This document shows positions 3,330 to 34,638 of a stretch of 64,000 nt of DNA, in pieces; position 1 is the first letter of the stretch, and every line of letters begins with the position of its first letter. The stretch covers positions 1,657 to 65,656 of the forward strand of contig JAMWBU010000005.1 in assembly GCA_023819255.1 (NCBI GenBank), read 5' to 3'. A program made the position numbers and the translations under genes. The notes under the pieces are model-generated. The model did no database searches. It had not been told where the DNA came from and saw nothing but the letters and a program-made list of their open reading frames with translations. The DNA is from Candidatus Omnitrophota bacterium (GTDB taxonomy: Bacteria > Ratteibacteria > UBA8468 > B48-G9 > DTJG01).

Positions 3330-3457
3330 ATAACTCTCCTTTTAACATACTGCGAAAAGGAACATCTTCGAAAATCAGCTATTTTAATGCTAAAAAACCA
3401 TTCGCCAGAAATCTCTCAGGATATCTTTGTATCTGTGAATTTTTATTACTGTATCTT

Positions 3458-10682: not shown

Positions 10683-10806
10683 GATGTTTGTTTTTTCCCA
10701 TCTTTCTCAAAGAGTGGTTGTGCGCGCACCTGCTAGATTTCTTTGACTTAAACAGCAAAATATGCTTTATTAACAACAGATTAAATTTAAACAATGGAGG
10801 TTTAAT

Positions 10807-11769
10807 ATGCAAAAAGTATTCAATTTTTCTCCGTCAGAATTTTTGCCATTTAAGGATGTGAAGGTAATTGAAAGAGTGCGAAAAATCAAAAAAAAGGACA
10901 TCTGCAAGCACCCCAACAAAAATTTTAAAATTCGCGTCATAGAAGATCAGACAGCGTTTGTTTTTGCCTGGGCTCTTCACATTGTTGGCGGAATAAAGAA
11001 ATCCCTTGAAGAAGGGAAACATCATGTAATAATTCTGCCTGCGCCAAATCCACAGTACGCGCTTGTTGCTGAAATGATCAATCAATTAAATATTTCGTGC
11101 AAACATGTACACACTTTTAATATGGATGAGTACGCCGATGAAAATGGAAATACAGCTCCAAAAGATTGGAAAGGCGGTTTCCAGTACTGGATGTGGCACG
11201 ATTTCTTTAATCGAATAAGGCCTGAACTGAGGATGCCTGAAAAACAAATACATTTTCCGAGCACAAAGAATGTCCAGTATTACAGCAAGATGATTGAAGA
11301 TCTCGGCGGAGCAGATATCTGTTATGGAGGCATTGGCTGGTGCGGACACATTGCATTTTTTGAGCCGCATCTCGGAATTGATTATGTCAATAACTTAGAA
11401 GGTTATCTCAAACTCGGCTCAAGGATTGTTGAACTTCATCCAATAACATTGTGTCAGAACAGTCTGTTTGCTGATGCAGGTTGTTCAGGAGACATTGCTG
11501 CGTGCCCGCCAAAAGCCGCAACAATAGGCCCCAGAGACTTGAAGAATTCAAAGCTTGTAAGTTTCTGGAATGGCTTTTCATACGGAGATGTTTCCTGGCA
11601 GAGATTTATCTCACGGCTTGCTGCGCATGGGCCGGTAAGTCCGCTTGTTCCAGCCAGTATCCTTCAAATCCTAAATAGCGAACTTACACTTTCAGGCAGT
11701 GTCGCAGAGGATTGTAAGACAGAAACAGGAGAAAGAAGAATACCCATCCAGTTTCCGGAGAAAAACTAA
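10807..11769 (+). CDS. Glucosamine-6-phosphate deaminase / 6-phosphogluconolactonase (NagB) family protein
   Basis: 320 aa. The FNMDEY motif and surrounding Rossmann-like pattern are typical of NagB/Pgl sugar-phosphate isomerase-deaminases. RBS GGAGG upstream. Confidence 0.6.
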   Translation: MQKVFNFSPSEFLPFKDVKVIERVRKIKKKDICKHPNKNFKIRVIEDQTAFVFAWALHIVGGIKKSLEEGKHHVIILPAPNPQYALVAEMINQLNISCKHVHTFNMDEYADENGNTAPKDWKGGFQYWMWHDFFNRIRPELRMPEKQIHFPSTKNVQYYSKMIEDLGGADICYGGIGWCGHIAFFEPHLGIDYVNNLEGYLKLGSRIVELHPITLCQNSLFADAGCSGDIAACPPKAATIGPRDLKNSKLVSFWNGFSYGDVSWQRFISRLAAHGPVSPLVPASILQILNSELTLSGSVAEDCKTETGERRIPIQFPEKN

Positions 11770-12776
11770 TGAAAAAACATTTGAAAGGAAAAATAATAGA
11801 CGCACACTCTCATGCTGGAGTATCTCTAAAAGCGTATATGAATATGGAATATCCATATGCTGAAACCATTGAAGGCATTGCTTTCAGACAGGAAAGATAC
11901 GGAATTGACGCCAATTTCGTTTTTCCTTTTTCTCCTGACCTTTTTTTTGACATCAATTTCCTTAAAAAAGGTATATGCAAACCATCAGGAAAACCGGTGT
12001 CAGATGTTCCCTATGCAATCGAGAATGAACTCTTATTAAAAGAAATCTATGAGTTCTGCCCTGAATACAATGGAAGATTTATTCCATTTGTCTCTGTGGA
12101 CCCTGTGAGAGAAATTAAAAAGCAGGTTGTGAATATTTTAAAACTTGAAAAAAAATATAGGATATTCGGGATCAAGATTGTCCCTGTGATATGTCAATCA
12201 AGTATTCTTGGCCTGCTCAAAACTGGGAAGGCCTTTATTGAAATAGCAAAAGAAAGAAACTGGCCTTTCACAATACACACAACAGTACATTCAGCAGAAA
12301 ATTTTTCCCACGCATCAGCAGTTTTTAAGGTTATTGAAAAAAATCCGGATGTGAGGTTCTGCCTGGCTCACTGCATTGGATTTGATAAAAATTATCTGAA
12401 AATGGCTGATAGCATGGAAAATGTATGGGTCGATACATCAGCCCTTACAATTCAGGTACAACTTACGAGAGAAAACCATCCCATCGCAGCCCCGGAGAAT
12501 GAAAGGTTTGATGCCGACTATTCAGATCACAAAAAGGTGTTAAGCTCTCTTGTCGATGCCTTCCCTGAAACCATTGTCTGGGGCACTGATACCCCTGCAT
12601 ATTCTTACATAGCAAGAAGAAAACAGGGAAAAACGAAAGATTCATATGTTGAAACATGGCTTAAAGCCACATACAGAGATGAAATTGACGCCTTGAGAAG
12701 TCTTCCGAGAAATCTTATTTTGAAGATTGCGAACGAAAACACGCTCAATTTTTTATTTGGCCTGGCAGATGATTAA
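11769..12776 (+). CDS. Amidohydrolase-2 (TIM-barrel metal-dependent hydrolase) family protein
   Basis: 335 aa. N-terminal IIDAHSHAG metal-binding HxH motif, later HC..F and D residues. Family includes sugar lactonases and decarboxylases. Start overlaps the stop of the upstream gene. Confidence 0.6.
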   Translation: MKKHLKGKIIDAHSHAGVSLKAYMNMEYPYAETIEGIAFRQERYGIDANFVFPFSPDLFFDINFLKKGICKPSGKPVSDVPYAIENELLLKEIYEFCPEYNGRFIPFVSVDPVREIKKQVVNILKLEKKYRIFGIKIVPVICQSSILGLLKTGKAFIEIAKERNWPFTIHTTVHSAENFSHASAVFKVIEKNPDVRFCLAHCIGFDKNYLKMADSMENVWVDTSALTIQVQLTRENHPIAAPENERFDADYSDHKKVLSSLVDAFPETIVWGTDTPAYSYIARRKQGKTKDSYVETWLKATYRDEIDALRSLPRNLILKIANENTLNFLFGLADD

Positions 12777-14034
12777 ACTGAAATACGGAAAAAGTGGTAT
12801 AGAGCTTAATTATCCAGCGAATTTTGTTGTTTTTGAAGGAAATGATATTTCAGGGATTGAAAATCCTGAAGAAAAAATCAGATGGTCATTGAAAAATCCT
12901 GTCGGATGTCCACCACTTTCCAAAATTGTAAGAAAGAAAAGAATTGAAAAAATATGTATTGTTATTTCTGATCACACAAGGGCTGTGCCGAATAAGATCA
13001 TACTTCCTGTAATTATTGAAACTTTGAAATTTGCTGGAATACCTGATGAAAAGATATTCATACTGATAGGAAACGGCACCCATAGAAGCACGACTGAAGA
13101 AGAAAAGATTGAACTTGCTGGCAAAGAAATTGTTGAAAGGTTTCCAATTTATGACCATTGCTCAACAGACGATTCAATGATAGTAAGGATTGAAAACACT
13201 GATTTTTATGTGAACAAAAGATATCTTGATGCAGACCTGAAAATAGTAACAGGTATGATTGAGCCACATTTTTTTGCTGGATTTTCTGGTGGAAGAAAAG
13301 GTGTTTGTCCTGGGATTGCCGGATATCAATCAATAAAAATATTCCATGGAGCCAGGTTTCTCGAACATCCGAATACAAAGCCAGGAATTCTCGAAAACAA
13401 TCCCTGTCATATATTTGCGACTGAATTTGCAAGAAAAACTGGCATTGATTTCCTTGTAAATGTGACAATAAATAAAAAAGGTGAAATTACAGGAATTTTT
13501 TCTGGAGATTTTGAAAAAGCATTTATGAAAGGAGTCGAGTTTTGCAAAAGTTCCACCACAGTTTTCTCTGAGAAAAAATACAAAATTGTCATTACAACAA
13601 ACGGTGGATACCCGCTTGACAGAGATTTTTATCAGTCTGTAAAAGGAATGGTGACCGCCCTTGAAATAGTGGAAGAAGGTGGCATTATCATCAGCGCAGC
13701 AGAATGTTGCGACGGGGTTGGAAGCGCAAATTTCAAAAAACTTCTGTACGGAATGCAGAAAACCGAAGATTTTATGAAAATGATAATGCAGCCAGGTTAT
13801 TTTCATGACCTCCAGTGGGGAGTGCAACCACTGGTTCATGTAATTGACAGGGCACGCGTATTTCTGGTCTCAACCCTTTCAGAAAAAGATGCAAGTTTGT
13901 GCAAAGTAATTCCTTTTAAAGACATAGATCAGGCAATCAGGGCTGCACTTGATGAATATGGAAAAGAAACTGAAATCGCTGTGATACCGGACGGTCCATA
14001 TACAATTGTTCAATTAAAAAAGGAAAACTTATGA
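12727..14034 (+). CDS. LarA-like (lactate racemase N-terminal domain, DUF2088) nickel-pincer-cofactor-dependent 2-hydroxyacid racemase/epimerase homolog
   Basis: 435 aa. Conserved DHTR and GNGTHR motifs of the LarA family N-domain and overall LarA-like length. An upstream in-frame ATG overlaps the previous gene; the true start may be a downstream Met. Confidence 0.6.
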   Translation: MRTKTRSIFYLAWQMIKLKYGKSGIELNYPANFVVFEGNDISGIENPEEKIRWSLKNPVGCPPLSKIVRKKRIEKICIVISDHTRAVPNKIILPVIIETLKFAGIPDEKIFILIGNGTHRSTTEEEKIELAGKEIVERFPIYDHCSTDDSMIVRIENTDFYVNKRYLDADLKIVTGMIEPHFFAGFSGGRKGVCPGIAGYQSIKIFHGARFLEHPNTKPGILENNPCHIFATEFARKTGIDFLVNVTINKKGEITGIFSGDFEKAFMKGVEFCKSSTTVFSEKKYKIVITTNGGYPLDRDFYQSVKGMVTALEIVEEGGIIISAAECCDGVGSANFKKLLYGMQKTEDFMKMIMQPGYFHDLQWGVQPLVHVIDRARVFLVSTLSEKDASLCKVIPFKDIDQAIRAALDEYGKETEIAVIPDGPYTIVQLKKENL

Positions 14035-15098
14035 ATGATTGGGGATTTTCACCTGATTTTGAAAATTTAAGAAATACTCTTCTGTGGGAAAAAAATTATC
14101 GTGTGCCAAATATGGAGTTTGTTATTGACAGGGAGATAAAAGAAGCCTATTTAAAAAAAGAAGTAAATTCAGTCAAAGAAGAGATTGAATTCAGGCATAG
14201 AGCCGGCTATGACTACATCTGGATAAGTAAGGGAATGGTGGATCCTGCTGGAACTGTTAATAAAGAACTTGTGATGGACGATCCAGCCAAACACTTCAAA
14301 GGAAAAGACATAAGGGTCTGGGCAGAAGAACATACCGGAATTATAAGAACAGAAAAGGATATTGAACAATTTCCATGGCCGGATATTAAGAAAACTGATT
14401 TTTCTGACTTTGAATTTGCAGAGAAGAATTTACCTGATGGAATGAAGGTTTTCGGGGTTTGCGGAAAAATATTTGTTGCAACATGGATGTTACTCGGCTT
14501 TGAAAACTTTGTGATGCTTAGCGTGGAAAAACCAGAATTTGTTGACCATCTGATAAATATAATTGGTGAAACCCAGGTAAGGTTCTGTGAAAAAATGCTT
14601 GAGTTTGAATGCGTTGGCGGAATATGGATTCCAGATGATATTGCCTATAGAACAGGGACCATAATGCCGCCAAAATGGCTTGGAGAAAAGATATTTCCGT
14701 ATTATAAAAGGATGTCAAAAATGATAAAGGATGCAGGAAAATTGTTCCTGTATCACTCTGATGGAAACCTCTACGAAATGCTTGACATCATAATTGACGC
14801 GGGATTTAACGCGCTGCATCCGATTGAACCTGAATCTATGGATATTCAGGAATTAAGAAAAAAAGTTGGTAAAAAGATCGCACTTATCGGAAACATCCGG
14901 GTTCACACCCTTGCAACAGGCACAAAACAGGAAATACAGGCGCTTACAATGGACAGAATCAAAAAATATGGAATGGAAGGCGGTTATGCTGTTGGCTCAA
15001 GTAATTCAGTTCCTAATTATGTACCGCTTGAAAATTATCTTACGATGCTTGAAACAAACGCGAAACATGGGTGGATAAAAGATAAGGAGGTACCGTGA
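14031..15098 (+). CDS. URO-D-like family protein (third paralog)
   Basis: 355 aa. HSDGN...DAGFNALHPIEPESMD pattern of the uroporphyrinogen decarboxylase/MtaA fold. Translationally coupled to the LarA-like gene. Confidence 0.55.
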   Translation: MNDWGFSPDFENLRNTLLWEKNYRVPNMEFVIDREIKEAYLKKEVNSVKEEIEFRHRAGYDYIWISKGMVDPAGTVNKELVMDDPAKHFKGKDIRVWAEEHTGIIRTEKDIEQFPWPDIKKTDFSDFEFAEKNLPDGMKVFGVCGKIFVATWMLLGFENFVMLSVEKPEFVDHLINIIGETQVRFCEKMLEFECVGGIWIPDDIAYRTGTIMPPKWLGEKIFPYYKRMSKMIKDAGKLFLYHSDGNLYEMLDIIIDAGFNALHPIEPESMDIQELRKKVGKKIALIGNIRVHTLATGTKQEIQALTMDRIKKYGMEGGYAVGSSNSVPNYVPLENYLTMLETNAKHGWIKDKEVP

Positions 15099-16156
15099 TC
15101 AGGATTGAAAACCCTTCAAAAAAAGAATATGAAAACATAATGCAATTCCTTGAAGAATCTTTTGACCATTCAAGAGGATTTTTTTATCGGTCGTTTCCGC
15201 AGGTTATGTCAAAAGAAACCCTTGATTACGACAACATTTTTATCATCAGGCAGAACAAAAGGATCGCCTCTTTAATCGGCATATACCCGCAAAATGTTGT
15301 GTTAAACGGAAGGGAAACAACAATTGGTGGTATAGGAAGCGTATCAACCCATCCTGATTTTAGAAACAAAGGATATATGAAGATATTGATGGACTTTTGC
15401 ATAGAAGAGATGAAAAGAAGAAATTATTCATTTTCAATTCTCGGAGGCGATAGACAGCGTTATAACTTCTGGGGATATGAAACATGCGGCGCAAATGCTG
15501 TATTTACCTTCAGTCAGAGAGCCTTTGAAAAAACAGGAATAACCAGCACTGTTTTAGTTTCCAGGTATGACGGCTCGATTGAAACACTTCAAGATATAAA
15601 AGAAGCTCATGAAAAATTTCCATGCTATATTGAAAGAACAATACCGTGGTATAAAAAAGTTTTTGATGAAAGAATACATACCCAGCTTTATTATACAAGA
15701 ATCAGAAACAGTTTTGCATATGCGGTCGCAGTTGGAGAAAGGACGGAAAGAACTATTGTAGAAATTGGCGGAGACAGCAACCTCTGGTGTTCTTTGATAA
15801 ACCAGCTACTTAAAAGATGGAATGCAAACGAAATTAGTGTTAATTTCCCGGCAAACATACCTGAAACAAATGTTTTATTGAAACATGCCAGCAGGTTCAC
15901 TATAGGACCCTTTTTTATGATAAAAATTCTCTCCCTCAAGGACACGATGGATTTTCTTTTCGGAAAGGATTTTGAAAATGAATATCTTGCGAAAATCACT
16001 GAAACAAAAGAAATTGCAGGAAAAGGCAAAAAGCTGGTAGAGCTTGACGAGAAAAAGTGGGTAAGGATTCTTTTCGGTCCCTTTTCTTTAGATACACCTG
16101 ATTTTTTGAAGAAAAAACAATCTCAGTTTTACTGGTGGTTTTTAGATCACATCTAA
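15095..16156 (+). CDS. GNAT family N-acetyltransferase (Eis-like, extended C-terminal domain)
   Basis: 353 aa. Acetyl-CoA binding-like segment (IGGIGSVSTHPDFRNKGYMKILM) in the N-terminal half. Last gene of the 10.8-16.2 kb operon. Confidence 0.5.
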   Translation: MIRIENPSKKEYENIMQFLEESFDHSRGFFYRSFPQVMSKETLDYDNIFIIRQNKRIASLIGIYPQNVVLNGRETTIGGIGSVSTHPDFRNKGYMKILMDFCIEEMKRRNYSFSILGGDRQRYNFWGYETCGANAVFTFSQRAFEKTGITSTVLVSRYDGSIETLQDIKEAHEKFPCYIERTIPWYKKVFDERIHTQLYYTRIRNSFAYAVAVGERTERTIVEIGGDSNLWCSLINQLLKRWNANEISVNFPANIPETNVLLKHASRFTIGPFFMIKILSLKDTMDFLFGKDFENEYLAKITETKEIAGKGKKLVELDEKKWVRILFGPFSLDTPDFLKKKQSQFYWWFLDHI

Positions 16157-17379
16157 TGTTCTGAAACAGGATATCCTATTGAAGCAAGCATTCGCGTTAT
16201 TTCTTCTCTGTTTGAAAGCTCACTGCAAATCTTCACCCTTTTTTTCTTTACATCCACATCAACAATCTTCACTCCCTCAACAGAAGAGATTCTGTCTTGT
16301 ATTTTCTTTGCGCAATTAGCGCAGGAAATCTCAGGAACATTAAAAACATAACAGTGTCCATACTTCTGCCTCACAGAAAATTTTTTTCTGGCCTCAGTTA
16401 TCATAAAATAAACCGCAAATCCGATAAGGATTAATGCTGATATGTATGAAACCAGAAGGAAATTGTTGTGTCTGTGTTGTGTTTCAAAAATACTGATACC
16501 ATAATTACTCACAATCGCATCCAGTCCAATAGCCGATAATAATGAAATGCCAACAATTACGATGATATAGATTATAAAACTCTTTATTCCGAGTGTTCTA
16601 GCGATAAAAAACATGGTAACTGTATTTGTCGCAGGCCCTGTTATTAAAAACACAAGTGCGGCGCCAGGACTTATTCCTTTTGCAATCAAGGATGCTGCAA
16701 TTGGTATCGAGCCTGTCGCACATACATAAAGAGGGACCCCAACAACAAGCATTAACAGGTATGTTAGGTATCTGCTGTCCAGATGGCCCGATAAAAACCG
16801 GTCAGGAACAATGTATGATATTATTCCTCCTATAAGCACTCCCCAGAATATCCATTTTGCTATTGAGCCGTATATTTCTGTGAAAGCATATTTCAATCCG
16901 CCAGCAATTGTTGTTTTCGAACAGGAAAAATTACCCTGTTCAGGTTGTTTTTCAGCGTTTTTCTTTTCTTTTGAAAAAATGTCAACAAGGATCCCGGCCA
17001 CAATGCCAATCAAAACACTTGCAATTATTCTGCAAAACATAAAAAATCCCCCAAGAAGTCCATATGTTGCAAATATTGAATCAATGCCTGTGACAGGGGT
17101 TGAACTTAAGAAAGCGACAACAGAACCCTTGCTTGCTCCTGACTTATAAAAAGTTGCCGCAGGAGGAAGAACACCGCAAGAACAAAGTGGAAGAGGAACT
17201 CCAAATATTACGGCTTTCACAATAGGCAGTATGCCCTTTCCTCCAAGATGCTTCAGGATAATTTCTGGCTTGAAAAAAGCGGAAATAATGCCAGACACAA
17301 CAAAACCGAGCAAAAGATAAAAACTCATCTGTAAAAACAGATTCCATGTTTCCTTAACAATTCCGAAGATCAAGTCCAC
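16153..17379 (-). CDS. SO_0444-family permease with C-terminal heavy-metal-associated (HMA) domain (putative Cu/Zn efflux)
   Basis: 408 aa, multi-TM. C-terminal CANCAKKIQDRISSVEGV...VDVKKKRVKICS is an HMA CxxC metal-binding domain. Confidence 0.65.
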   Translation of the reverse strand: MDLIFGIVKETWNLFLQMSFYLLLGFVVSGIISAFFKPEIILKHLGGKGILPIVKAVIFGVPLPLCSCGVLPPAATFYKSGASKGSVVAFLSSTPVTGIDSIFATYGLLGGFFMFCRIIASVLIGIVAGILVDIFSKEKKNAEKQPEQGNFSCSKTTIAGGLKYAFTEIYGSIAKWIFWGVLIGGIISYIVPDRFLSGHLDSRYLTYLLMLVVGVPLYVCATGSIPIAASLIAKGISPGAALVFLITGPATNTVTMFFIARTLGIKSFIIYIIVIVGISLLSAIGLDAIVSNYGISIFETQHRHNNFLLVSYISALILIGFAVYFMITEARKKFSVRQKYGHCYVFNVPEISCANCAKKIQDRISSVEGVKIVDVDVKKKRVKICSELSNREEITRMLASIGYPVSEH

Positions 17380-17383
17380 TGGT

Positions 17384-18193
17384 TTATGATGAAGTTATTG
17401 AAATGTTCATACTGCCTGTTCTGTATCCTTCGAGATCTAAACTGATACAGGCGTAGCCTATTTCTTTCAGGACCTTTATTATTTTTTTCCTTATATTAAC
17501 AATTTTTGCGATATCATCCGGAGAAACTTCTATTCTGCACATTTTATCATAATCTCTCACTCTCACTTCTAAAAAACCGATTCTTCTTAAATATTCTTCA
17601 GCCCTGCAAATTCTTTCCAACCTCTCTTTTGTGATTTTTTCACCGTATGGAATCCTTGAAGCAAGGCAAGCCATCTGCGGCTTATTCCATGTTGGAAGTC
17701 CCATCTTTTTTGACAGTTCCCTTATATCTTTTTTCCTGAATTCAGCAATCTGCAGTGGCGAAATAACTCCAAACATTGATTTTGCCTTATTTCCAGGCCG
17801 ATAATCAGAGATATCGTCAAAATTTGAACCATCAGCAATAGCATTAAAACCCTCTTTTTTCGCAACAGACGCAAGGCGCGAAAATAAATCCTTTTTGCAA
17901 TAAAAACATCTATCGACAGGGTTTTTTGTAAAGGTTTTATCAGCCAGCTTTTTAGAATTATAGATAAAAACCTTTACACCGAGCGCCCGCGCAAAATCCT
18001 CTGCAAATTTGACCTCATTTTCAGAATAGAGCTCTGCTTTTTCAATAAAAGCACCAACATTTTCTGCTCCAAGACAATCTACAGAGAATCTCATAAGGAA
18101 TGTGCTATCAACTCCTCCAGAATAAGCGATAAGAATTTTCCTGCTTTTTTTCAGGATTTTTTCAAGTTTCTTTTTTTTTTCACCGATATTCAT
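17384..18193 (-). CDS. LarE-like PP-loop ATP-dependent sulfur transferase (TIGR00268 family)
   Basis: 269 aa. PP-loop SGGVDS motif (ILIAYSGGVDSTFL). Cys-rich segment DRCFYCKK plus a downstream Cys (MACLASR) resembling the [4Fe-4S]-binding LarE subclass. Confidence 0.6.
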   Translation of the reverse strand: MNIGEKKKKLEKILKKSRKILIAYSGGVDSTFLMRFSVDCLGAENVGAFIEKAELYSENEVKFAEDFARALGVKVFIYNSKKLADKTFTKNPVDRCFYCKKDLFSRLASVAKKEGFNAIADGSNFDDISDYRPGNKAKSMFGVISPLQIAEFRKKDIRELSKKMGLPTWNKPQMACLASRIPYGEKITKERLERICRAEEYLRRIGFLEVRVRDYDKMCRIEVSPDDIAKIVNIRKKIIKVLKEIGYACISLDLEGYRTGSMNISITSS

Positions 18194-18432
18194 TCTTCAA
18201 CATTCACAACTTCTTTAATCTCAGGAACCCTGTCCTTTATAATTTTTTCAACCCTCATTTTCAATGTTAACTGAGCAAAAGGACAGCCTGCGCAACTTCC
18301 TGTTAGTTTCACCTTTGCGGTATCGCCTGAAACCTCAATAAGCTCACAGTCTCCGCCTTCCATCTGAAGAAAACACCTTATTTCCTTCAATGCCTCTTCC
18401 ACCTTTGTTTTCACTTCCTGATTTGAAGTCAT
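18190..18432 (-). CDS. NifU-like (Nfu) Fe-S cluster carrier domain protein
   Basis: 80 aa. GSCAGCP motif of the NifU C-terminal/Nfu domain. Confidence 0.7.
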   Translation of the reverse strand: MTSNQEVKTKVEEALKEIRCFLQMEGGDCELIEVSGDTAKVKLTGSCAGCPFAQLTLKMRVEKIIKDRVPEIKEVVNVEE

Positions 18433-18447
18433 CAGTCCTCCTTCTGG

Positions 18448-18825
18448 TTAATGTTTTGCCCTTTGTTTCTCTCTATAGTCATTGATTGCGGCGCGAAGTC
18501 CCTGTTCTGCAAGAAGAGAACAGTGTTTCTTCAATGGCGGGAGACCCTCAAGAACATCTACGACATCCTGATTGGTAATCTTTTCCGCTTCTTCAAGGGT
18601 TTTTCCTCTGGCAAGTTCCGTGATCACAGAACTTGTTGCAACAGCAGCTCCGCAGCCAAATGTCTCAAACTTGATGTCTGCAATCCTGTCATCTCTAACC
18701 TTTATATAAATCCACATAACATCTCCACATACAGGATTTCCCACTTTTCCTATTCCATCCGCGTTCTCTATTCTTCCCATATTTCTCGGGTTTTTAAAGT
18801 GATCAAGAAGTTTTTCGCTGTACAT
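18448..18825 (-). CDS. iscU: Fe-S cluster assembly scaffold IscU/NifU N-terminal type
   Basis: 125 aa. YSEKLLDHFKNPRNMG...GNPVCGD...FETFGCGAA conserved Cys/Asp pattern of the U-type scaffold. Confidence 0.8.
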   Translation of the reverse strand: MYSEKLLDHFKNPRNMGRIENADGIGKVGNPVCGDVMWIYIKVRDDRIADIKFETFGCGAAVATSSVITELARGKTLEEAEKITNQDVVDVLEGLPPLKKHCSLLAEQGLRAAINDYREKQRAKH

Positions 18826-18834
18826 TTTTTCTCC

Positions 18835-19734
18835 TTATACATATTTAAGCATTGCGTCGAGAGCGCTGCGCGCCTTTTTAATAACATTTTCTGAAAGAAC
18901 AATTTCATCTGTTTCATTTTCCAGACAGTCTTTTAATTTTTCAAGTGTTGTTTTTTTCATGTTAAAGCAAACTCTGGCTGATCCAAGAGAAAAAAATTCT
19001 TTATACGGATTTTCCTTCTTCAACCTGTGTATCAGCCCTTCTTCTGTGCCTATAATAAATATTTTTGAATCTGAAATTTTTGCCCTTTTCAGCATGCCTG
19101 ATGTTGAAAGCACAAAATCCGCCGCCTCCTGAACTTCAGGATTGCATTCCGGGTGAACCATTATTTCCGCATCAGTATATTTTTTTCTTGCCAGTTTTAA
19201 ATCCTGTATTGTAAATTGTCTGTGAACAAAACAGTACCCATCCCACAGAATCAATTTTTTTTCAGGAACCTGTTTCTGAACAAAATAACCAAGATTCCTG
19301 TCAGGTAGAAAAATTACTGTGTCTGAAGGAATATTTTTAACAACCGTAGCCGCATTCGATGAAGTGCAGCAAACATCAGAAATCGCTTTTACATCAGCTG
19401 AAGTATTCACATATGAAACAACCGGAACATCAGGATTTTTTTCTTTTAATTTCATCACATCTTCAACCCTTGCCATATCCGCAAGAGGACAACCCGCATC
19501 AAAGGCGGGCAAAAAAACCTTTTTTCCTGGATTTAAAATTTTTGCTGTCTCTGCCATGAATCTTACACCACAAAAAATGATAAGACCAGAATCTGTTATT
19601 TCCGTTGCTTTTCTTGCAAGCTCAAGACTGTCCCCAACAAAATCCGCTACATCCTGTATTTCTGGCAATTGATAATTATGCGCCAGAATCACAGCATTTT
19701 TCTTCTCTTTGATTTTTCTTATTTCATCTATCAT
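18835..19734 (-). CDS. nadA: Quinolinate synthase NadA
   Basis: 299 aa. N-terminal KNAVILAHNYQLPEIQDVADFVGDSLELA and internal repeats typical of NadA. Confidence 0.85.
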   Translation of the reverse strand: MIDEIRKIKEKKNAVILAHNYQLPEIQDVADFVGDSLELARKATEITDSGLIIFCGVRFMAETAKILNPGKKVFLPAFDAGCPLADMARVEDVMKLKEKNPDVPVVSYVNTSADVKAISDVCCTSSNAATVVKNIPSDTVIFLPDRNLGYFVQKQVPEKKLILWDGYCFVHRQFTIQDLKLARKKYTDAEIMVHPECNPEVQEAADFVLSTSGMLKRAKISDSKIFIIGTEEGLIHRLKKENPYKEFFSLGSARVCFNMKKTTLEKLKDCLENETDEIVLSENVIKKARSALDAMLKYV

Positions 19735-19735
19735 C

Positions 19736-20896
19736 TTATTTTTTGTTCCAGAAAGGAGACATCTTCCTTAACTTCTCAACAATTTCAGGTAATACATCTG
19801 CGGTTTTCTCAATATCAGCCATTGTATTGGACCTACCAAGGCTGAATCTTAAAGAGCCATGCGCAACCTCTGGCGGAATACCAAGCGCAAGAAGCACGTG
19901 AGACGGCTCCAGAGAACCAGAGGTACAGGCAGAGCCAGAAGATACGCATATTCCTTCAAAATCAAGATGCAAAAGCATGCTTTCGCCCTCAACATATTTA
20001 ACGCAAATGTTGAGCGTGTTATAAAGACGCTTTTCAGGGTGTCCATTAACAATGATTTCAGGTATTCTTTCAACAAGTTTCTTTTCAAGCTCATCCCTGA
20101 GAATTTTTTCTTTTGATGAATCCTGAGCCATTTTTTCCTCAGCGATCTCGCACGCTTTCCCAAGTCCGACCATAGCAGGGACATTCTCTGTTCCCGGCCT
20201 CAAACCCTTTTCCTGATGTCCGCCATAAAAAACGGGCTTAAATTTTACTCCTTTTCTCACATAAAGAGCCCCTATTCCTTTTGGTCCGTAAAACTTGTGT
20301 CCTGACAGTGAAAAAAAGTCCACATTTAATTTTTTTACAGACACAGGAATTTTTCCTGCCACCTGAACCCCATCGCAGTGGAAAACAATATTATTTTCTT
20401 TCGCGATTTTTCCAATTTGCTCAATGGGTTCGATTGTTCCAATTTCATTGTTCGCAGCCATTATCGAAATAAGCATTGTTTTCTCATTTATTGCTTTTCT
20501 CACATCGTCAGGATCAATAATTCCATACCTGTCTACTGGAAGATAGGTCACCTGAAAGCCCATATTTTTTTCAAGAAACTTGCAAACATTCAGCACAGCA
20601 TGGTGTTCAATCAGCGAAGTTATGATGTGGTTGCCTCTGTTTTTCAAAAGCAATGCAGTGCCGATAATTGCGATATTGTTGCTTTCTGTTCCACCTGATG
20701 TAAAAATTATTTCTTCAGATGAAGCATCAAGCAATCTTGCCACCTTTTTCCTCGCATCCTCAACTGCCTCTTTTGCTCTTTGAGAGGCGGTGTAGATAGA
20801 AGAGGGATTAAAAAACATTTCAGTAAACCATTTTTTCATTTCCTCAAGCACAACCGGATCGCAGGGAGTTGTCGCATTATGGTCAAGATATATCAT
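19736..20896 (-). CDS. Cysteine desulfurase (NifS/IscS class, PLP-dependent)
   Basis: 386 aa. MIYLDHNATTP start, PLP-lysine region SLSGHKFYGPKG, active-site loop SSGSACTSG. Confidence 0.85.
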   Translation of the reverse strand: MIYLDHNATTPCDPVVLEEMKKWFTEMFFNPSSIYTASQRAKEAVEDARKKVARLLDASSEEIIFTSGGTESNNIAIIGTALLLKNRGNHIITSLIEHHAVLNVCKFLEKNMGFQVTYLPVDRYGIIDPDDVRKAINEKTMLISIMAANNEIGTIEPIEQIGKIAKENNIVFHCDGVQVAGKIPVSVKKLNVDFFSLSGHKFYGPKGIGALYVRKGVKFKPVFYGGHQEKGLRPGTENVPAMVGLGKACEIAEEKMAQDSSKEKILRDELEKKLVERIPEIIVNGHPEKRLYNTLNICVKYVEGESMLLHLDFEGICVSSGSACTSGSLEPSHVLLALGIPPEVAHGSLRFSLGRSNTMADIEKTADVLPEIVEKLRKMSPFWNKK

Positions 20897-20908
20897 TTTG
20901 GTTCCTTT

Positions 20909-21319
20909 TTAAAATTTTATTTTTATCGCTCTTACCATACACCCTTTAACACATAACATACAGGTGATACACTTTTCATAGTCAAAAAGAACCTTTCTTG
21001 TTGAGCCGTCATAATAGAAAGCGTTTGTCGGACAGAGTCCAATACATACACCGCAATGTGTACAAATCTTATCGTCCTTGGTAATATCCTGCTTCAACCT
21101 CTGAAGTATGATATTCTGATTTTTCAGTTCTTTCAAAACATGTTTGACAACATTTTCTTCGCCCGTGAAAACAATAACCATTAGCCCCTCTTTCTGAGGA
21201 AGAACCTGCGCCTGCAGGATATTAAATTCTATGTCGTATTTTTTCACAAGATTTGAAATTGTCGGTTTATCAACAAGTTCTCTGGGAAATTTAAGCACCA
21301 CCCTTTCGCTTATCTTCAT
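20909..21319 (-). CDS. NIL-domain 4Fe-4S ferredoxin (MA1822-like partner of COG1900 protein)
   Basis: 136 aa. N-terminal NIL domain (FNILQAQVLP...) followed by two CxxCxxCxxxCP ferredoxin motifs (CTHCGVCIGLCP, CITCMLCVKGC). Confidence 0.7.
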   Translation of the reverse strand: MKISERVVLKFPRELVDKPTISNLVKKYDIEFNILQAQVLPQKEGLMVIVFTGEENVVKHVLKELKNQNIILQRLKQDITKDDKICTHCGVCIGLCPTNAFYYDGSTRKVLFDYEKCITCMLCVKGCMVRAIKIKF

Positions 21320-22521
21320 TGGATTTTCTCCTTTGTTTCAAAACCTTTCATCTTTACTCCTGATTCTTTACCAGGCAGTTTTGCCACAGGGTTGGTAAGT
21401 TCAAAACTTCTCGATGAAATCCAGTTTTTAAGTATCCCGGCAATTTTTCTTGCCATGACAAAGCTTGAGAGCGCGCCGGTTGGAATCGTTCTCTCGCCAA
21501 CCTTGATACTTCCAGAAAAAAGCTCTGCATAGCTTGCTTCTCCAAGAATATCAGGCTTTCTTTCTGGATAACTTTTGCTGTAATCAACAACAGGAGCAAA
21601 CATTTTTTCAGCGGGAATTCCGCACCAGAACGCAACCTTCTCATCCACAACAGGAATAGGTATGCCTATTCCGACAATAAGGGTAACTCCATAACCAACA
21701 AAAGAAGCGCCACGCAAAAATTCTCCATTCATTTGTTTCAAGTCGCCAATAACAGCAAGGGTCCCTGCGGGCCTTTTTGGCACCCCTTCTGAAGTCCTTT
21801 CAACTGATGGATTGTGCTGTGTGCCGTGCCATGCAACATAACCGATACCGCCGCCGAGAAAAATTTTTGTTCCAATCCCGATTGAATAATACTCAGGATC
21901 TCTCAAGAGAGGAGAAAGAACCCCCGCAGAACAGAAATTCGCATTACCAAAGTTTGGCTTCAATATCCCCATATATGTATACAACATCCTGTCTGAAGAA
22001 TTTACAGCAACATTATAATTCTGATAACAATTTCTAGGATTGAATAAGATAGCCTCATTAATGTTTTTCAGCGAAAAATAAGACCTCAATTCTTTTCTGG
22101 GATAACAATCAGTGCCATATGATGTTGCCTCAAGAAGTATACTTCTTCCACTGACGAGCTCTTCAATCACATAACCTCCGCCATAGCTGAATTCGCCTGG
22201 ATAGTAGAGATTTTTTGGATCGTCCGGCGGAATTGCGGTCGCGCCAAGATAGACATCAACCGCTGCAAGCCCTGCGTAGGCAGGCACTCCGTTAAGAAAA
22301 CATGTTCCGCCGCCAATCTTAATTCTTGGAGCGGGGTGTCCAAAATTTAAGTAAATGCTGCTTGAACACATTGGGCCAAATGTTCCTGTTGTCACAACAT
22401 CCACCTCTTTCGCTGCTTTTACTTCGCCTTTTTTTTTCACAACCTCAAGCATCTCTTCAGCGGTGACTATAACTGCCTGTCCCTTTCTTATTTTTTCATT
22501 AATTTCTTCTATTGTTTTCAT
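21316..22521 (-). CDS. COG1900/DUF39 family protein (MA1821-like, sulfide-dependent homocysteine biosynthesis)
   Basis: 401 aa. Characteristic N-terminus (KGQAVIVTAEEM...VDVVTTGTFGPMCSS...) of the DUF39 family. Translationally coupled to the NIL-ferredoxin gene. Confidence 0.65.
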   Translation of the reverse strand: MKTIEEINEKIRKGQAVIVTAEEMLEVVKKKGEVKAAKEVDVVTTGTFGPMCSSSIYLNFGHPAPRIKIGGGTCFLNGVPAYAGLAAVDVYLGATAIPPDDPKNLYYPGEFSYGGGYVIEELVSGRSILLEATSYGTDCYPRKELRSYFSLKNINEAILFNPRNCYQNYNVAVNSSDRMLYTYMGILKPNFGNANFCSAGVLSPLLRDPEYYSIGIGTKIFLGGGIGYVAWHGTQHNPSVERTSEGVPKRPAGTLAVIGDLKQMNGEFLRGASFVGYGVTLIVGIGIPIPVVDEKVAFWCGIPAEKMFAPVVDYSKSYPERKPDILGEASYAELFSGSIKVGERTIPTGALSSFVMARKIAGILKNWISSRSFELTNPVAKLPGKESGVKMKGFETKEKIQ

Positions 22522-22563
22522 AAACTTCCCCTTTTTAACTATGTCTGAAGAAACAAAAAATAC

Positions 22564-22986
22564 TCAGGCTTTTCTCTGGCTATCTAGTTTTCTTTGTTCT
22601 TTAATAAAATCCTCCAGGGTTATGCTTTTTAATACACTGGATATTTTATCATCTAACCTGTCCCATATAATTCTTGCACCACAGAATTTCACTCTCGGGC
22701 ATAATCCTGAATCTTGCAGGCATTCAATCTTGCTTATGCCTTCGAGTGCGCCGATGATATCATATAAAGTAATATCTTTCGGATTTTTCGCAAGGATATA
22801 ACCACCCTTCTTTGCTCTTGTTCTTCTTATAAAACCCTTATTTCTCAAATCGTTGAGAATGTGGTCAAGATATTTCAAAGAAAGATTTTGCCTTTCACTG
22901 ATATGTTTAAGAAGTACCGGCGTACTATTGGTCCCAATTTCAATAAGACCTCTTATTCCATACCTGACGCGGGTTGTTATAAACAT
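22564..22986 (-). CDS. Rrf2 family transcriptional regulator (IscR-like)
   Basis: 140 aa. N-terminal winged HTH (RVRYGIRGLIEI...LKHISERQNLSLKYLDHILNDLRNKGFI) and three C-terminal Cys (CLQDSGLCPRVKFC) for Fe-S binding. First gene of the Fe-S/sulfur operon. Confidence 0.8.
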   Translation of the reverse strand: MFITTRVRYGIRGLIEIGTNSTPVLLKHISERQNLSLKYLDHILNDLRNKGFIRRTRAKKGGYILAKNPKDITLYDIIGALEGISKIECLQDSGLCPRVKFCGARIIWDRLDDKISSVLKSITLEDFIKEQRKLDSQRKA

Positions 22987-23147
22987 TTTCTATTGCCTTT
23001 TTCTACTTATTCTATACCATTTATATTATAAAAGAATTCAAAACCGATGTCAAGCGACAGTTTTTTCATAAGAGATTTATGGTGATTGCATGCTTTTGAC
23101 TTTTATGAAAAACAGGTATATTCTTTTTTCTCAAAAAGGGGGAAAAA

Positions 23148-23987
23148 ATGGAGATTGGTTTTTTGACAGCTCCGTTTCTGAAGGAAAGTCTTGAATATGT
23201 TTTGCAATTTGCGTCTGAGAATGGATTTACAAAGGTTGAAATTTTCTCTGTGCCTGGTGCAGGCCATATCGTGCCGGAAGAGGTCCTTGCGGATGGCTGT
23301 AAAAAACTCAATGATCTTTTTAATCTCTATGGGGTCAGACCATCAAGCTATGCCTGTTATGCGAATATCCTTGACCCGGATACTAAACGCAGGCAACAGA
23401 TAATAAAGCATCTTGAAAATTTAGTCCTTGTTGCAGAAATGACCGGGGTTGATATAATCTGCACGAATGCTGGCATGCCTTTGCCAGAAAAAACAAAGAT
23501 GCAAACAATTGAACAGGATGTCGCGCCTTATTTTAAACAAATTTGTTCTTTTGCCGCTAAACACATGGTAAAAATAGCGCTTGAGAACTGGTTTGCCACA
23601 AATATCCAGCATCTCGAACACTGGAAAAAACTTTTTGAGCTGGTGCCTTACCCAAACCTTGGACTCAATTTTGACCCTTCGCATCTTGTCCATCAGGGAA
23701 TTGATTACCTTGCGGCAGTGGATGAATTTGCGACACGTATCTTCCATACGCATGCCAAGGACTGTGAAATCAACCAGCATCTGCTTAAAAGGATTGGCAA
23801 TCAGGAAAAAGGATGGTGGAGATATGTAATTCCGGGTTATGGCAGGATTCAATGGGGTAGATATATTTCAAAACTCAGAAAAATTGGATACAATGGGGTT
23901 CTCAGCATTGAGCACGAAGACAGTACACTTGGAAGAGAGGAAGGCTTCATAGTGGGCAAAAAATATCTATCTCAGTTTATTGTGTGA
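23148..23987 (+). CDS. Sugar phosphate isomerase/epimerase (xylose isomerase-like TIM barrel)
   Basis: 279 aa. Pattern EIFSVPG...IALENWF...HTHAKD...SIEHED typical of AP-endonuclease 2/xylose isomerase-like TIM barrels. Confidence 0.65.
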   Translation: MEIGFLTAPFLKESLEYVLQFASENGFTKVEIFSVPGAGHIVPEEVLADGCKKLNDLFNLYGVRPSSYACYANILDPDTKRRQQIIKHLENLVLVAEMTGVDIICTNAGMPLPEKTKMQTIEQDVAPYFKQICSFAAKHMVKIALENWFATNIQHLEHWKKLFELVPYPNLGLNFDPSHLVHQGIDYLAAVDEFATRIFHTHAKDCEINQHLLKRIGNQEKGWWRYVIPGYGRIQWGRYISKLRKIGYNGVLSIEHEDSTLGREEGFIVGKKYLSQFIV

Positions 23988-24025
23988 ATTTGTAAAATAG
24001 CGCCAAGTGATTTAAAATAAATTAA

Positions 24026-25318
24026 ATGGAAATACTTATTAAAAACATTCGTGTGATAGATCCCTATTGCAAGATTGACAGCATAAGAGATGTTTTGATC
24101 TCAGGAGCCAGTTTTTCACAAATCTCTAAAAGCATCCACAAAAAAAACCCAAAGACAATCGATGGAACAGGCTTGTGGCTTATTCCCGGACTTATTGATA
24201 TGCACTGCCACCTTCGTGAACCAGGCAATGAAGGGGAAGAAACAATTCTGTCCGGAAGCATCTCTGCTGCCGCTGGCGGTTTCACAACAATATGCTGCAT
24301 GGCAAACACTGACCCTCCCGTAGACAACAAGGTTGTTGCGGGATATATATTTGAAAAAGCAAAAAATGCACCTATCAAGGTTCTGCCCTATGGAACAATC
24401 ACTGCGGGAAGAAAAGGCACATCCCTTTCGCCCATGGGAGAATTATCTGAAGCAGGTGTCATTGGATTTTCTGATGATGGAAACTGCGTAATGGATAGCC
24501 TGATATTCAGAAGGGCCCTTGAATACAGCAAGCCATGGGGAAAAATTGTTATATCCCACAGCGAAGACCAGATTCTCGCGAAAAATGGGGTGATGAATGA
24601 AGGCATTCTATCTACAAAACTGGGACTAAGAGGTATTCCTGCAGAGGCAGAACACATAATGGTTTACAGGGACATATCTCTTGCTAAATTGACAGGCGCG
24701 AAACTTCATCTTGCGCACCTGACAACAAAAAAGTCGCTTGATCTTGTCAGGGAGGCAAAAAAGGAATTCAAAAATATCACATGCGAGGTCGCGGTTCACC
24801 ATCTCGTACTGACTGAAGACGCTCTTTCAAATTATGACGCAAATGCAAAGGTCAACCCACCCCTGAGAACACAGCAAGATATTAGAGCGCTTGTGAAAGG
24901 AATTAAGGAAAATATTATTGATGCTATCGTAACAGACCATGCCCCTCACTCAGAAGAAGAAAAAGGTTCAGGCATCGAAAACGCGCCTTTTGGAATGATT
25001 GGATTTGAAACTGCACTACCTCTTGCAATGTCACTTGTTAAATACGGATTGAAACCAATTCAAATCATTGAAAAATTGACAATTGGCCCTGCAAGAGTGC
25101 TGAAAATTCAGCCCGGTACAATAACTCAAGGGGCAGAGGCAAACTGCGTGATATTCGACCCGGAAAAAGAATGGGTTGTGACAAAGGACAATATTCTTTC
25201 ACAAAGCAAAAATACTCCCTTCCTTAACAAAAAGATTAAGGGCAAGGTCCTGTACACATTCCATCGCGGAAATATCGTTTATTCTGACAAATCAATGTCG
25301 CAGAATAAGGGGTGTTAA
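24026..25318 (+). CDS. pyrC: Dihydroorotase-like cyclic amidohydrolase
   Basis: 430 aa. DMHCHLREPG metal-binding motif, downstream His/Asp ligands (HLAHL, DHAPH), and type-I DHOase length. Confidence 0.7.
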   Translation: MEILIKNIRVIDPYCKIDSIRDVLISGASFSQISKSIHKKNPKTIDGTGLWLIPGLIDMHCHLREPGNEGEETILSGSISAAAGGFTTICCMANTDPPVDNKVVAGYIFEKAKNAPIKVLPYGTITAGRKGTSLSPMGELSEAGVIGFSDDGNCVMDSLIFRRALEYSKPWGKIVISHSEDQILAKNGVMNEGILSTKLGLRGIPAEAEHIMVYRDISLAKLTGAKLHLAHLTTKKSLDLVREAKKEFKNITCEVAVHHLVLTEDALSNYDANAKVNPPLRTQQDIRALVKGIKENIIDAIVTDHAPHSEEEKGSGIENAPFGMIGFETALPLAMSLVKYGLKPIQIIEKLTIGPARVLKIQPGTITQGAEANCVIFDPEKEWVVTKDNILSQSKNTPFLNKKIKGKVLYTFHRGNIVYSDKSMSQNKGC

Positions 25319-26739
25319 TGAACATTATCATCATTGTCTCTGATACGCTGAGACGAGACCATCTTGGGTGTTATGGCAATGGCTGGATTTCAACACCAAA
25401 TATCGACAAATTTTCAAGAATTTCTCTAACCTTTGAAAACACTTACATTGGCTCATTCCCGACTGTTCCAAATAGAAGGGACCTGTTTACAGGAAGATTT
25501 ACTTTTACATACACAGACTGGTCGCCGCTGACCGCTGAAGAGGTAGTTATTTCGGAAATTCTTGAAAAACAGGGATACCTGTCAATGTTTATCGCTGATA
25601 CTCCGCACACGACAGCTCCTGGTTATAATTATCAGAGAGGATTTTCTGCGTGGTTAAAAATCAGAGGCCAGGAAGGAGACCCGATTACAACCGACCCTGT
25701 TGATATTAAGCTGCCATGCGCTCCCCATAAATTAAGAAACCCTGAAAGAGTTAAACAGATGCTGCGAAACAATCTTCTTCGAAAATCAGAAGAGGATTAT
25801 TTCTGCGCACAGACAATGCGGCAGGCGTGTATGTGGCTTGAAAAAAACTACAGGGAAAAATTTTTTCTTTATGTTGATACCTTTGACCCGCATGAACCAT
25901 GGGATCCACCGCATTATTATGTAGACATGTATGATAGGAACTACGATGGAGAGGAAGTTATCTATCCTGTCTATGGTCCATGCGATTATCTTACAAAAAG
26001 AGAAATCAAGCATATCAGGGCACACTACGCCGGAGAGGTCACGCTTGTTGACAGATGGGTGGGTCGCTTATTCCAGAAAATTGAAGATCTCGATCTGCTT
26101 AACAACACAATCATTGTGTTTACAACCGATCACGGCTTTTATCACGGCGAACATCACCTTATGGGAAAAAGCATTATCACAGAAAAATACCAGGGGCTTG
26201 CTCCACTGTATGAAGAGGTAACTCAGATTCCCCTTATTATGTACATACCAAAAACTAAGAGCAGAAAAATAAAGGGGCTTGTGCAGATTCCTGATATTAC
26301 CGCAACAATTCTTGACCTGGTGAAGGCAAAACACGATGTAAGAATGGATGGAAAGTCCCTACTTCCCCTGATAGAGAAAAACAAGAAGATAAGAAATTTT
26401 GCGGTAAGCGCGCCTTCAATCATTTATGGTTCAACAGGAGGTCAAAAAGTGACGATCACAACTGACGACGGCTGGACACTGATTTCCGGACTGAAAATAA
26501 GTGAAACAAAAGAATACATCACAAGAATCGTTGATGGACAGGTGCGAATACAAAAACCTTTGAGCAGAAATCTTGAACCAGAACTTTATTACCTGCCTCA
26601 CGACCCATCGCAAAACAAGAATATTTTTTCAAAAAATAAGGAAAAGGCGAAACAGATCCATGCGAAATTTGTTGAGTTTCTCAAAGATACAAAAACAGAT
26701 GAAAAAATTGTCACGATGTGGTCTGATTTCGAAATTTAG
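25312..26739 (+). CDS. Sulfatase-like hydrolase (alkaline phosphatase superfamily)
   Basis: 475 aa. N-terminal IIIVSDTLRRDHLGCYGN and C-terminal TTDHGFYHGEHH are sulfatase-like. The formylglycine-motif position reads S-F-P-T-V-P-N-R-R (non-canonical, possibly Ser-type). Overlaps the pyrC stop by 7 nt. Confidence 0.55.
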   Translation: MLMNIIIIVSDTLRRDHLGCYGNGWISTPNIDKFSRISLTFENTYIGSFPTVPNRRDLFTGRFTFTYTDWSPLTAEEVVISEILEKQGYLSMFIADTPHTTAPGYNYQRGFSAWLKIRGQEGDPITTDPVDIKLPCAPHKLRNPERVKQMLRNNLLRKSEEDYFCAQTMRQACMWLEKNYREKFFLYVDTFDPHEPWDPPHYYVDMYDRNYDGEEVIYPVYGPCDYLTKREIKHIRAHYAGEVTLVDRWVGRLFQKIEDLDLLNNTIIVFTTDHGFYHGEHHLMGKSIITEKYQGLAPLYEEVTQIPLIMYIPKTKSRKIKGLVQIPDITATILDLVKAKHDVRMDGKSLLPLIEKNKKIRNFAVSAPSIIYGSTGGQKVTITTDDGWTLISGLKISETKEYITRIVDGQVRIQKPLSRNLEPELYYLPHDPSQNKNIFSKNKEKAKQIHAKFVEFLKDTKTDEKIVTMWSDFEI

Positions 26740-27579: not shown

Positions 27580-27590
27580 CAGAGCATAAA

Positions 27591-33835: not shown

Positions 33836-33844
33836 AATAATTCG

Positions 33845-34636: not shown

Positions 34637-34638
34637 AT

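Follow-up and report, generated by a model that had tools for sequence, protein, structure and literature searches.

A predicted nine-gene operon of an Omnitrophota bacterium joining iron-sulfur assembly genes with a homocysteine enzyme pair, NadA and a [4Fe-4S]-type LarE

The DNA analyzed here, a 64-kb stretch of contig JAMWBU010000005.1 from a Candidatus Omnitrophota bacterium (hereafter, the window), carries a predicted nine-gene operon on the minus strand at 22986-16153. In the direction of reading, it encodes an Rrf2-family regulator, the COG1900/HcyBio and NIL-ferredoxin subunits of L-aspartate semialdehyde sulfurtransferase, abbreviated L-ASST, a NifS-type cysteine desulfurase, the quinolinate synthase NadA, the scaffold IscU, the carrier Nfu, the sulfur insertase LarE, and a permease with a metal-binding HMA domain. 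These genes are probably transcribed as one unit in an anaerobic Omnitrophota bacterium, and in it a minimal iron-sulfur (Fe-S) assembly system is combined with enzymes that consume its products. The parts are of known types throughout, and what they make up is therefore a new arrangement and not a new system.

Gene order and conservation of the operon

The nine genes are tightly packed. From rrf2 to the permease gene, the intergenic gaps are 42, -4, 12, 1, 9, 15, -4, and 4 nt, and Shine-Dalgarno-like sequences are found at most of the starts. A predicted sigma-70-type promoter, TTGACA-17-TATAAT, lies at 23025..23053 on the minus strand. It is the sole 12/12 consensus match in 15900-23300 and stands 39 nt 5' of the Rrf2 ATG. 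The initial annotation, whose minus-strand coordinates for all nine open reading frames (ORFs) were confirmed, had read the locus as one operon of nine co-directional genes with close or overlapping boundaries; the spacing and the upstream promoter agree with that reading, and Pfam and NCBIfam assignments support all nine of its gene identities. Terminator-like matches within the operon showed no excess over shuffled sequence, and no riboswitch or other RNA element was matched in Rfam at E<=0.1 in 10000-26000. The nine genes would accordingly be expected on a single transcript, and all nine proteins retain the expected ligand or catalytic residues among orthologs. A 147-residue ORF on the plus strand (18451-18894), antisense to IscU and NadA, is almost certainly spurious.

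The gene order exceeds chance. A conserved-neighborhood comparison, which the initial annotation had proposed as a check, recovered the complete nine-gene order in the lineage of L086, L088, and L089, in L087 (where cysK and a ferredoxin gene are inserted behind rrf2), and in L155, which was reached independently via HcyBio and has 54% identity in LarE and 44% in the permease. Three partial contigs (L083, L084, and L090) agree with the same order. About six related metagenomic lineages of Omnitrophota relatives keep the arrangement down to a LarE identity of 54%, with protein identities of 44% to 91% across the loci that share it. NifS and IscU are 81-87% identical in the closest relatives, and the permease, at 44-67%, is the least conserved operon gene in the clade. 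The same operon is also present on a Logan contig. A 79-kb contig in ENA that carries it matches only 1-41182 of the window, with the operon well within the shared part, and the right end of the window matches separate short contigs, including JAMWBT010000078.1 of GCA_023818575.1 (compare L153 and L154).

Looser versions of the cluster are found in other lineages. The loci L096 and L097 have the order Rrf2-CysK-Thi4-HcyBio-NIL-NifS-NadA-IscU-RseC-unknown-Nfu-LarE and no permease, and two metagenome-assembled genomes of candidate phyla (WOR-1 and Saganbacteria) show the order LarE-Rrf2-NifS-IscU-permease-MnmA-NadA. A Brocadiaceae locus reads Rrf2-CysK-NifS-NadA-LarE-IscU, a Thermodesulfobacteriota locus LarC...Rrf2-CysK-HcyBio-NIL-MnmA-LarE, and another Omnitrophota locus Rrf2-CysK-Nfu-HcyBio-NIL-LarE-NifS. 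Related sulfur operons (L096 at 3382-4155 and 8243-9713, L021 at 1881-2657, L159, and L160) add genes for Thi4, CysK, a CysE-like hexapeptide transferase, RseC, FdhD, MOSC, and DsrE. A conserved protein of 360-373 residues with no family match is encoded directly before Nfu-LarE in L093, L096, and L098.

The iron-sulfur core and its putative client enzymes

The assembly core consists of three proteins. The cysteine desulfurase (19736..20896, minus strand) is of the NifS/MisS type, with 577 bits against a TIGR03402 cutoff of 531, and its K201 and C324 are invariant. The single-domain scaffold (18448..18825, minus strand) is an IscU/MisU of the clostridial NifU/IscU type (TIGR03419, 197 bits, cutoff 188) that conserves C33, C58, and C102. 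An 80-residue Nfu-type carrier (18190..18432, minus strand; PF01106, 87 bits) corresponds to the C-terminal domain of NifU, with an invariant CxxC (C47 and C50), and its stop codon overlaps the start of LarE by 4 nt. A family scan of the operon proteins found no Hsc or IscA genes.

Two known systems resemble this core. The minimal iron-sulfur system (MIS), formed by MisS and MisU, lacks a carrier protein and has been little studied (PMC13066941). As in MIS, the NifS-type desulfurase adjoins a single-domain IscU, and HscBA chaperones, an A-type carrier, and a ferredoxin are missing (PMC13066941); unlike MIS, the window core adds the Nfu carrier and five genes (two for L-ASST subunits, and those for NadA, LarE, and the metal permease). 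Among operon types, the window locus comes closest to the Rrf2-IscS-IscU(-MnmA) cluster found in Gram-positive bacteria and anaerobes. These iscR/cymR-iscS-iscU(-mnmA) operons share with it an Rrf2 regulator at the head, which in the window has cysteines at the ligand positions of Thermincola potens IscR, and MnmA joins the same cluster in loci related to the window. The window regulator itself falls short of the equivalog cutoffs of both IscR and CymR.

Quinolinate synthase NadA is a [4Fe-4S] enzyme, encoded here at 18835..19734 on the minus strand (NF006878, 425 bits, cutoff 294) with C82, C168, and C256 invariant. A linkage of nifS to nadBCA in Bacillus subtilis is said to have been described by Sun and Setlow in 1993, and the window shares with it a NifS-like desulfurase tied to NAD synthesis through NadA. 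In contrast to B. subtilis, nadA stands here without nadB or nadC, inside an Fe-S operon and 1 nt after nifS.

The second and third genes encode the homocysteine pair. The COG1900/HcyBio subunit of L-ASST (21316..22521, minus strand) matches PF01837 with 479 bits over 349/349 profile positions. The start of the NIL-ferredoxin gene (20909..21319, minus strand) overlaps its stop codon by 4 nt, and the product combines a NIL domain (PF09383) with a 2x[4Fe-4S] ferredoxin of the Fer4 families, in which eight invariant cysteines form two CxxCxxCxxxC motifs. In the HcyBio subunit, orthologs keep C52, C139, and C197 without exception (C52 in 8 orthologs). C52 stands at a position similar to that of the essential Cys54 in MA1821 numbering and is a candidate for its counterpart. 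No solved structure for COG1900 was found. Coenzyme M synthase, or methanogenesis marker 16 (COG1900d), was rejected as an identity, with 104 bits against a TIGR03287 cutoff of 364 and the ferredoxin as a separate protein. COG1900 and NIL-ferredoxin proteins together form an L-ASST that carries a persulfide on a conserved cysteine (PMC12068725, PMC5764234). The full-length COG1900 protein, the adjoining NIL domain with two [4Fe-4S] motifs, and the gene overlap bear out the homocysteine route that the initial annotation had seen in this DUF39/COG1900 pair. The likeness to MA1821/MA1822 of Methanosarcina acetivorans and to the Desulfovibrio DUF39/NIL-ferredoxin proteins probably extends to a conserved N-terminal cysteine, here in a GTFGPMC context (PMC12068725, PMC5764234). 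In contrast to these, the window subunit has no CBS domain, no COG2122 gene is nearby, and a cysteine desulfurase gene follows directly.

Six HcyBio-anchored contexts provide a sample independent of the LarE-seeded scans described below. A NifS-like gene is linked to HcyBio in three of them. One is the same nine-gene operon, and in the other two (one a Chloroflexi locus, the other a 1.8-Mb contig) HcyBio lies in Rrf2-CysK-...-NifS clusters, one of which adds Thi4, a CysE-like protein, FdhD, MOSC, and NadA. COG1900/NIL genes are also linked to NifS in related genomes; their being unlinked there would have counted against the initial annotation. NifS can reasonably be hypothesized to be the sulfur donor of the COG1900 enzyme, and the claim goes no further than that.

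LarE is predicted to be an ATP-dependent sulfur insertase of the [4Fe-4S] type (17384..18193, minus strand; TIGR00268/COG1606, 315 bits, cutoff 150). Its PDB matches include the wild-type chain 5udq of L. plantarum LarE (E=1.7e-53) and 8cnz (E=4.9e-26), the LarE of Methanococcus maripaludis, and both align with it without gaps. The PP-loop SGGxDS motif (S25GGVDS30) is invariant, as are C96, C99, C176, S179, R211, and R213. The three cysteines align with cysteines of 8cnz, whereas in L. plantarum LarE the CxxC positions are taken by Trp and Ala, and the sacrificial Cys176 lies one residue earlier. Such a one-residue shift of the third cysteine distinguishes [4Fe-4S] LarE from the L. plantarum Cys176 type, and the cluster-dependent subclass is the majority type of LarE (PMC9283937). 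S179, R211, and R213 are the equivalents of S180, R212, and R214, which bind the phosphate of pyridinium-3,5-dicarboxylate mononucleotide (P2CMN) in L. plantarum LarE (PMC9283937), and they are invariant in 28 close homologs and in 109 LarEs from loci of any context.

A tRNA thiolase (TtuA/NcsA, ThiI, or TilS) was considered and rejected. The TtuA model gave 34 bits (cutoff 450) and the ThiI Pfam model 19.8 bits against 20.5, the NcsA and TilS models were also far under their cutoffs, and the PDB match to TtuA had an E of about 5e-6, compared with 1.7e-53 for 5udq. By these scores it is not one of the tRNA thiolases, a grouping that would have counted against the initial annotation. Because of the CxxC...C alignment, the phosphate binders, and these low tRNA thiolase scores, it is assigned by sequence to the cluster-dependent subclass, where its cysteine pattern had already placed it. 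Thermotoga maritima LarE requires a tri-Cys [4Fe-4S] cluster and takes sulfane sulfur from IscS (PMC9283937), and M. maripaludis LarE is treated as [4Fe-4S]-dependent (PMC8961635). The window protein shares with these enzymes (8cnz) the SGGxDS motif, the CxxC...C pattern, the shifted third cysteine, and the Ser/Arg/Arg set (PMC9283937, PMC8961635), and the earlier proposal that a cysteine desulfurase feeds it agrees with the published biochemistry (PMC9283937). The setting differs. The desulfurase genes of T. maritima are far from larE (PMC9283937), whereas the window larE lies in a NifS/IscU operon, is translationally coupled to nfu, and has no adjacent larB or larC.

A LarA homolog with Lar_N and LarA_C domains, overlooked in the initial annotation, is encoded 3.3 kb downstream of LarE, at 12727-14034 on the plus strand. 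Its H119, H181, K191, and H207 align with H108, H174, K184, and H200 of L. plantarum LarA, which are the two catalytic histidines, the cofactor tether, and the nickel ligand, respectively. Among solved structures, it is nearest to LarA racemases (9eid with 322 bits and 5huq with 240 bits). It scores 412 bits with NF033504, just short of the lactate-racemase equivalog cutoff of 460 (the malate racemase cutoff is missed as well), which makes its substrate uncertain. The gene belongs to a convergent operon on the plus strand (10807-16156) that encodes a NagB/6-phosphogluconolactonase-like protein, an Amidohydro_2 protein, the LarA homolog, a URO-D/MtaA-like protein, and a GNAT acetyltransferase, and whose final stop codon overlaps that of the permease gene. 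This operon is retained in three relatives (L083, L087, and L090). Judged by its conserved residues, the LarA homolog is likely the user of the cofactor that LarE would help to make.

To collect LarE loci, genomes were scanned with a LarE alignment, which gave 80 loci of many phyla at 42-50% identity, and metagenomes with the window LarE protein, which gave 67 loci, close relatives included. They were annotated by tblastn and by hidden Markov models (HMMs) built from seeds, of which those for LarB, LarC, MnmA, and CysK were verified. After dereplication at 90% LarE identity, 108 loci remained, and neighbors were counted on the same strand within 5 kb. These were LarB (23), MnmA (18), LarC (15), Nfu (12), NadA (12), IscU (11), NifS (11), Rrf2 (10), permease (8), NIL-ferredoxin (8), HcyBio (7), and CysK (6), with LarB (15), MnmA (14), and Nfu (11) directly adjoining LarE; seeding of the metagenome scan with the window LarE gives the window clade too much weight in these counts. 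The 80 genome-scan loci alone gave LarB 18, LarC 14, Rrf2 11, MnmA 10, CysK 8, NifS 7, NadA 5, and HcyBio 4. Cluster-type larE stands beside sulfur-trafficking genes, often just after nfu, about as often as beside larB/larC. This point is modestly new, and a full-text search of the literature on LarE, lar genes, and MIS found no description of larE within isc or nif operons.

Proposed working of the operon and alternative explanations

The first gene (22564..22986, minus strand) encodes an IscR-type member of the Rrf2 regulator family (PF02082, 105 bits) whose three cysteines, C89, C96, and C102, lie in the C-terminal part. In its best PDB match, 4cic (T. potens IscR), serines stand at the positions of these cysteines; 4cic is the triple Cys-to-Ser mutant, in which the serines replace the cluster ligands. 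Because the protein is under both equivalog cutoffs (90 bits against 208 for IscR TIGR02010, and 92 against 195 for CymR), the signal that it senses is uncertain. The window, L086, L088, and L089 have in common the TTGACA...-10 element followed by a GATATAGAATAAGTAGAA-like sequence, and the block GGTATAGAATAAGTAGAA after the -10 element (22987-23024 in the window). No clear operator palindrome was found after the -10 element of the window, although the block is conserved. In L045, which is more distant, a perfect palindrome (TAATCCTATAGGATTA) stands upstream of Rrf2 at the same position. The block is a possible candidate for an Rrf2 operator, and Rrf2 may autoregulate the operon.

From these parts, a working model can be drawn. 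The three-Cys Rrf2 would sense Fe-S status and control the promoter at 23053-23025. NifS would take sulfur off cysteine as a persulfide, IscU would assemble clusters, and Nfu would supply the NIL-ferredoxin, NadA, and LarE with [4Fe-4S] clusters. The COG1900 protein and NIL-ferredoxin would convert aspartate semialdehyde to homocysteine, with sulfur perhaps from the adjoining NifS and not from free sulfide. LarE would hold its cluster through C96, C99, and C176, adenylate P2CMN, and transfer a non-core sulfide that NifS replenishes. A LarC encoded elsewhere would then insert nickel, and the cofactor might serve the LarA-type racemase 3.3 kb away. Finally, the thiol-lined HMA-domain permease could clear Cu and Zn, both of them poisons of Fe-S assembly. 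In this scheme, all hand-offs of sulfur and of clusters are inferred.

Several observations weigh against this reading, in addition to the clade bias of the 108-locus counts and the uncertain signal of Rrf2. Weak promoter-like matches occur inside the operon at the frequency expected by chance, which bears on the single transcript. HcyBio is unlinked to NifS in three of the six independent contexts. Homocysteine synthesis in Desulfovibrio requires a COG2122/AbpE-like partner (PMC5764234), and tblastn with three AbpE_bact queries found none in the window, nor was one found in the LarE loci; such a partner could be encoded in another part of the genome. As the initial annotation had noted, the window contains neither larB nor larC: no match to them was given by tblastn with 32 seeds or by HMMs from verified seeds run on the six-frame translation (E<=10); the 10 kb to the left of the window on the ENA contig also hold no lar genes. 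Because of this, a complete pathway to the nickel-pincer nucleotide cofactor (NPN) is assumed for this genome, not shown.

Some of these points favor co-regulation without direct hand-off, an explanation with a real if lesser chance of being correct. The genes would then be grouped by a shared dependence on cysteine or Fe-S clusters, with L-ASST working on free sulfide, NadA a labile client, and NifS serving IscU only. Where HcyBio/NIL occurs without NifS, a COG2122-like AbpE_bact gene or nothing follows; among the six contexts, AbpE_bact comes directly after NIL-ferredoxin in two and nearby in a third. The methanogen pathway runs on sulfide, according to a passage of PMC5764234 that cites Allen et al. 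2015, and related operons carry further sulfide-dependent enzymes, such as the thiazole synthase Thi4. On the other hand, direct transfer of sulfane sulfur from IscS to [4Fe-4S] LarE occurs in vitro (PMC9283937), and a persulfide is present on the conserved COG1900 cysteine in vivo, as reported in the part of PMC5764234 that cites Rauch. In this clade, moreover, NifS begins 12 nt behind NIL-ferredoxin, with no COG2122 gene locally. A stronger form of the hand-off model can be put forward only tentatively and is somewhat doubtful. In it, the NifS/MisS-type desulfurase would be a sulfur hub that delivers sulfane sulfur from cysteine to IscU and also, directly, to the COG1900 enzyme (replacing COG2122 or free sulfide) and to the open iron of the LarE cluster, and Nfu would be a dedicated [4Fe-4S] donor to LarE.

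The terminal permease (16153..17379, minus strand) belongs to the ArsP_1/SO_0444 family, with 330 bits against an NF033936 cutoff of 300. Its cysteines, in a C66-S-C68 motif and in the C353xxC356 of a C-terminal HMA domain (PF00403), are invariant. A gene caller favors a later start that gives 391 residues. At 4505-5726 of the close relative L083, the permease is broken into three ORFs and may be a pseudogene or a product of misassembly. Fitness data in this family are those of SO_0444 itself, which cells need to grow under Zn or Cu stress (PMC3219624), and the family has CSC as its signature motif (bioRxiv 10.1101/2022.07.06.499078). The window protein shares the NCBIfam equivalog family and the CSC motif with SO_0443-SO_0444 of Shewanella oneidensis (PMC3219624), and differs in its fused HMA domain and in its place under an Rrf2-headed Fe-S operon instead of a ZntR-like regulator.

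Export of Cu or Zn that protects cluster assembly, as the initial annotation had suggested, is plausible from family membership, with both direction and substrate of transport to be read as predictions. It is unlikely that the permease instead imports Fe(II) for clusters or Ni(II) for pincer cofactor synthesis, or that it carries a sulfur or metalloid compound. Such roles would suit its position directly behind LarE in the window and behind IscU in WOR-1 and Saganbacteria, the inclusion of organoarsenical and SaoE-type carriers in the ArsP_1 family (bioRxiv 10.1101/2022.07.06.499078), and the lack of an adjoining MerR/ZntR-type metal-sensing regulator, which SO_0443-SO_0444 has (PMC3219624). 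However, the protein is above the SO_0444 equivalog cutoff and below that of SaoE, and both the CSC motif and the CopZ/CopP-like HMA domain are features typical of soft-metal exporters. In WOR-1 and Saganbacteria, the permeases are under the SO_0444 cutoff and have no HMA domain, and the link across phyla may therefore involve a different subfamily.

The function of LarE itself was weighed with 122 loci, counted before dereplication: 25 had LarB/C only, 41 sulfur or Fe-S genes only, 1 both, and 55 neither. In a LarE tree (rough neighbor-joining, no support values), sulfur-context and larB/larC-context LarEs interleave, and the motif set is identical in both contexts. A separate sulfur-context paralog family was rejected because of this interleaving. 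We conclude that the two groups are, as far as their sequences tell, one enzyme in two genomic arrangements, which is not proof for this genome. Given the nearby LarA, the retained phosphate binders, the interleaved contexts, and an identity of 48% to a larB-linked LarE (compared with 37% to the L. plantarum enzyme, which is proven biochemically), the window LarE is best classed as an ordinary nickel-pincer sulfur insertase. Recruitment as a paralog for another thiolation (a thiocarboxylate in another cofactor, or tRNA) fed by NifS/IscU/Nfu is very improbable: the missing larB/larC, the scarcity of loci with both contexts, and the 14 of 108 loci in which MnmA adjoins LarE would suit it, but it is opposed by the intact NPN site of a LarA homolog kept in three relatives, by the Ser/Arg/Arg set in 109/109 LarEs regardless of context, by the identities and the tree, by the low TtuA, ThiI, and TilS scores, and by L040, which carries larC 8 kb upstream of a like sulfur cluster. 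Of the overall interpretation in the initial annotation, the gene identities and the LarE subclass stand, and the suggested non-lar thiolation by LarE does not.

Two further regions of the window lie outside the operon. At 27540-30465 on the plus strand, 4.5 kb upstream of the operon, are genes for ZnuA, an ABC ATPase, an ABC-3 permease, and an S-adenosylmethionine methyltransferase; the same four-gene set is found in the unrelated contig L160 (10198-13254), 2 kb from HcyBio-NIL-AbpE. At 33341-36975 stand together an N6/N4 DNA methylase, a 164-residue ORF that matches no family, and a large serine recombinase, an apparent small island of a mobile or restriction-modification kind.

Biological meaning

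The accepted roles of the individual proteins are unchanged by this finding, and all the added genes belong to known families. The operon represents a "minimal" MIS-type Fe-S system with a carrier and recognizable clients. For LarE, it provides genomic support from uncultured anaerobes for a [4Fe-4S] enzyme that is recharged by a desulfurase, the genes for which are unlinked in T. maritima. It also offers a natural NifS/IscU/Nfu set for co-expression to obtain active cluster-type LarE, a practical hurdle flagged in the nickel-pincer field (PMC11796402). For the bacterial COG1900 homocysteine pathway, NifS is a testable candidate for the sulfur donor in vivo. If the desulfurase does act as the sulfur hub of the operon, larE would belong to a sulfur-trafficking regulon as much as to a lar operon.

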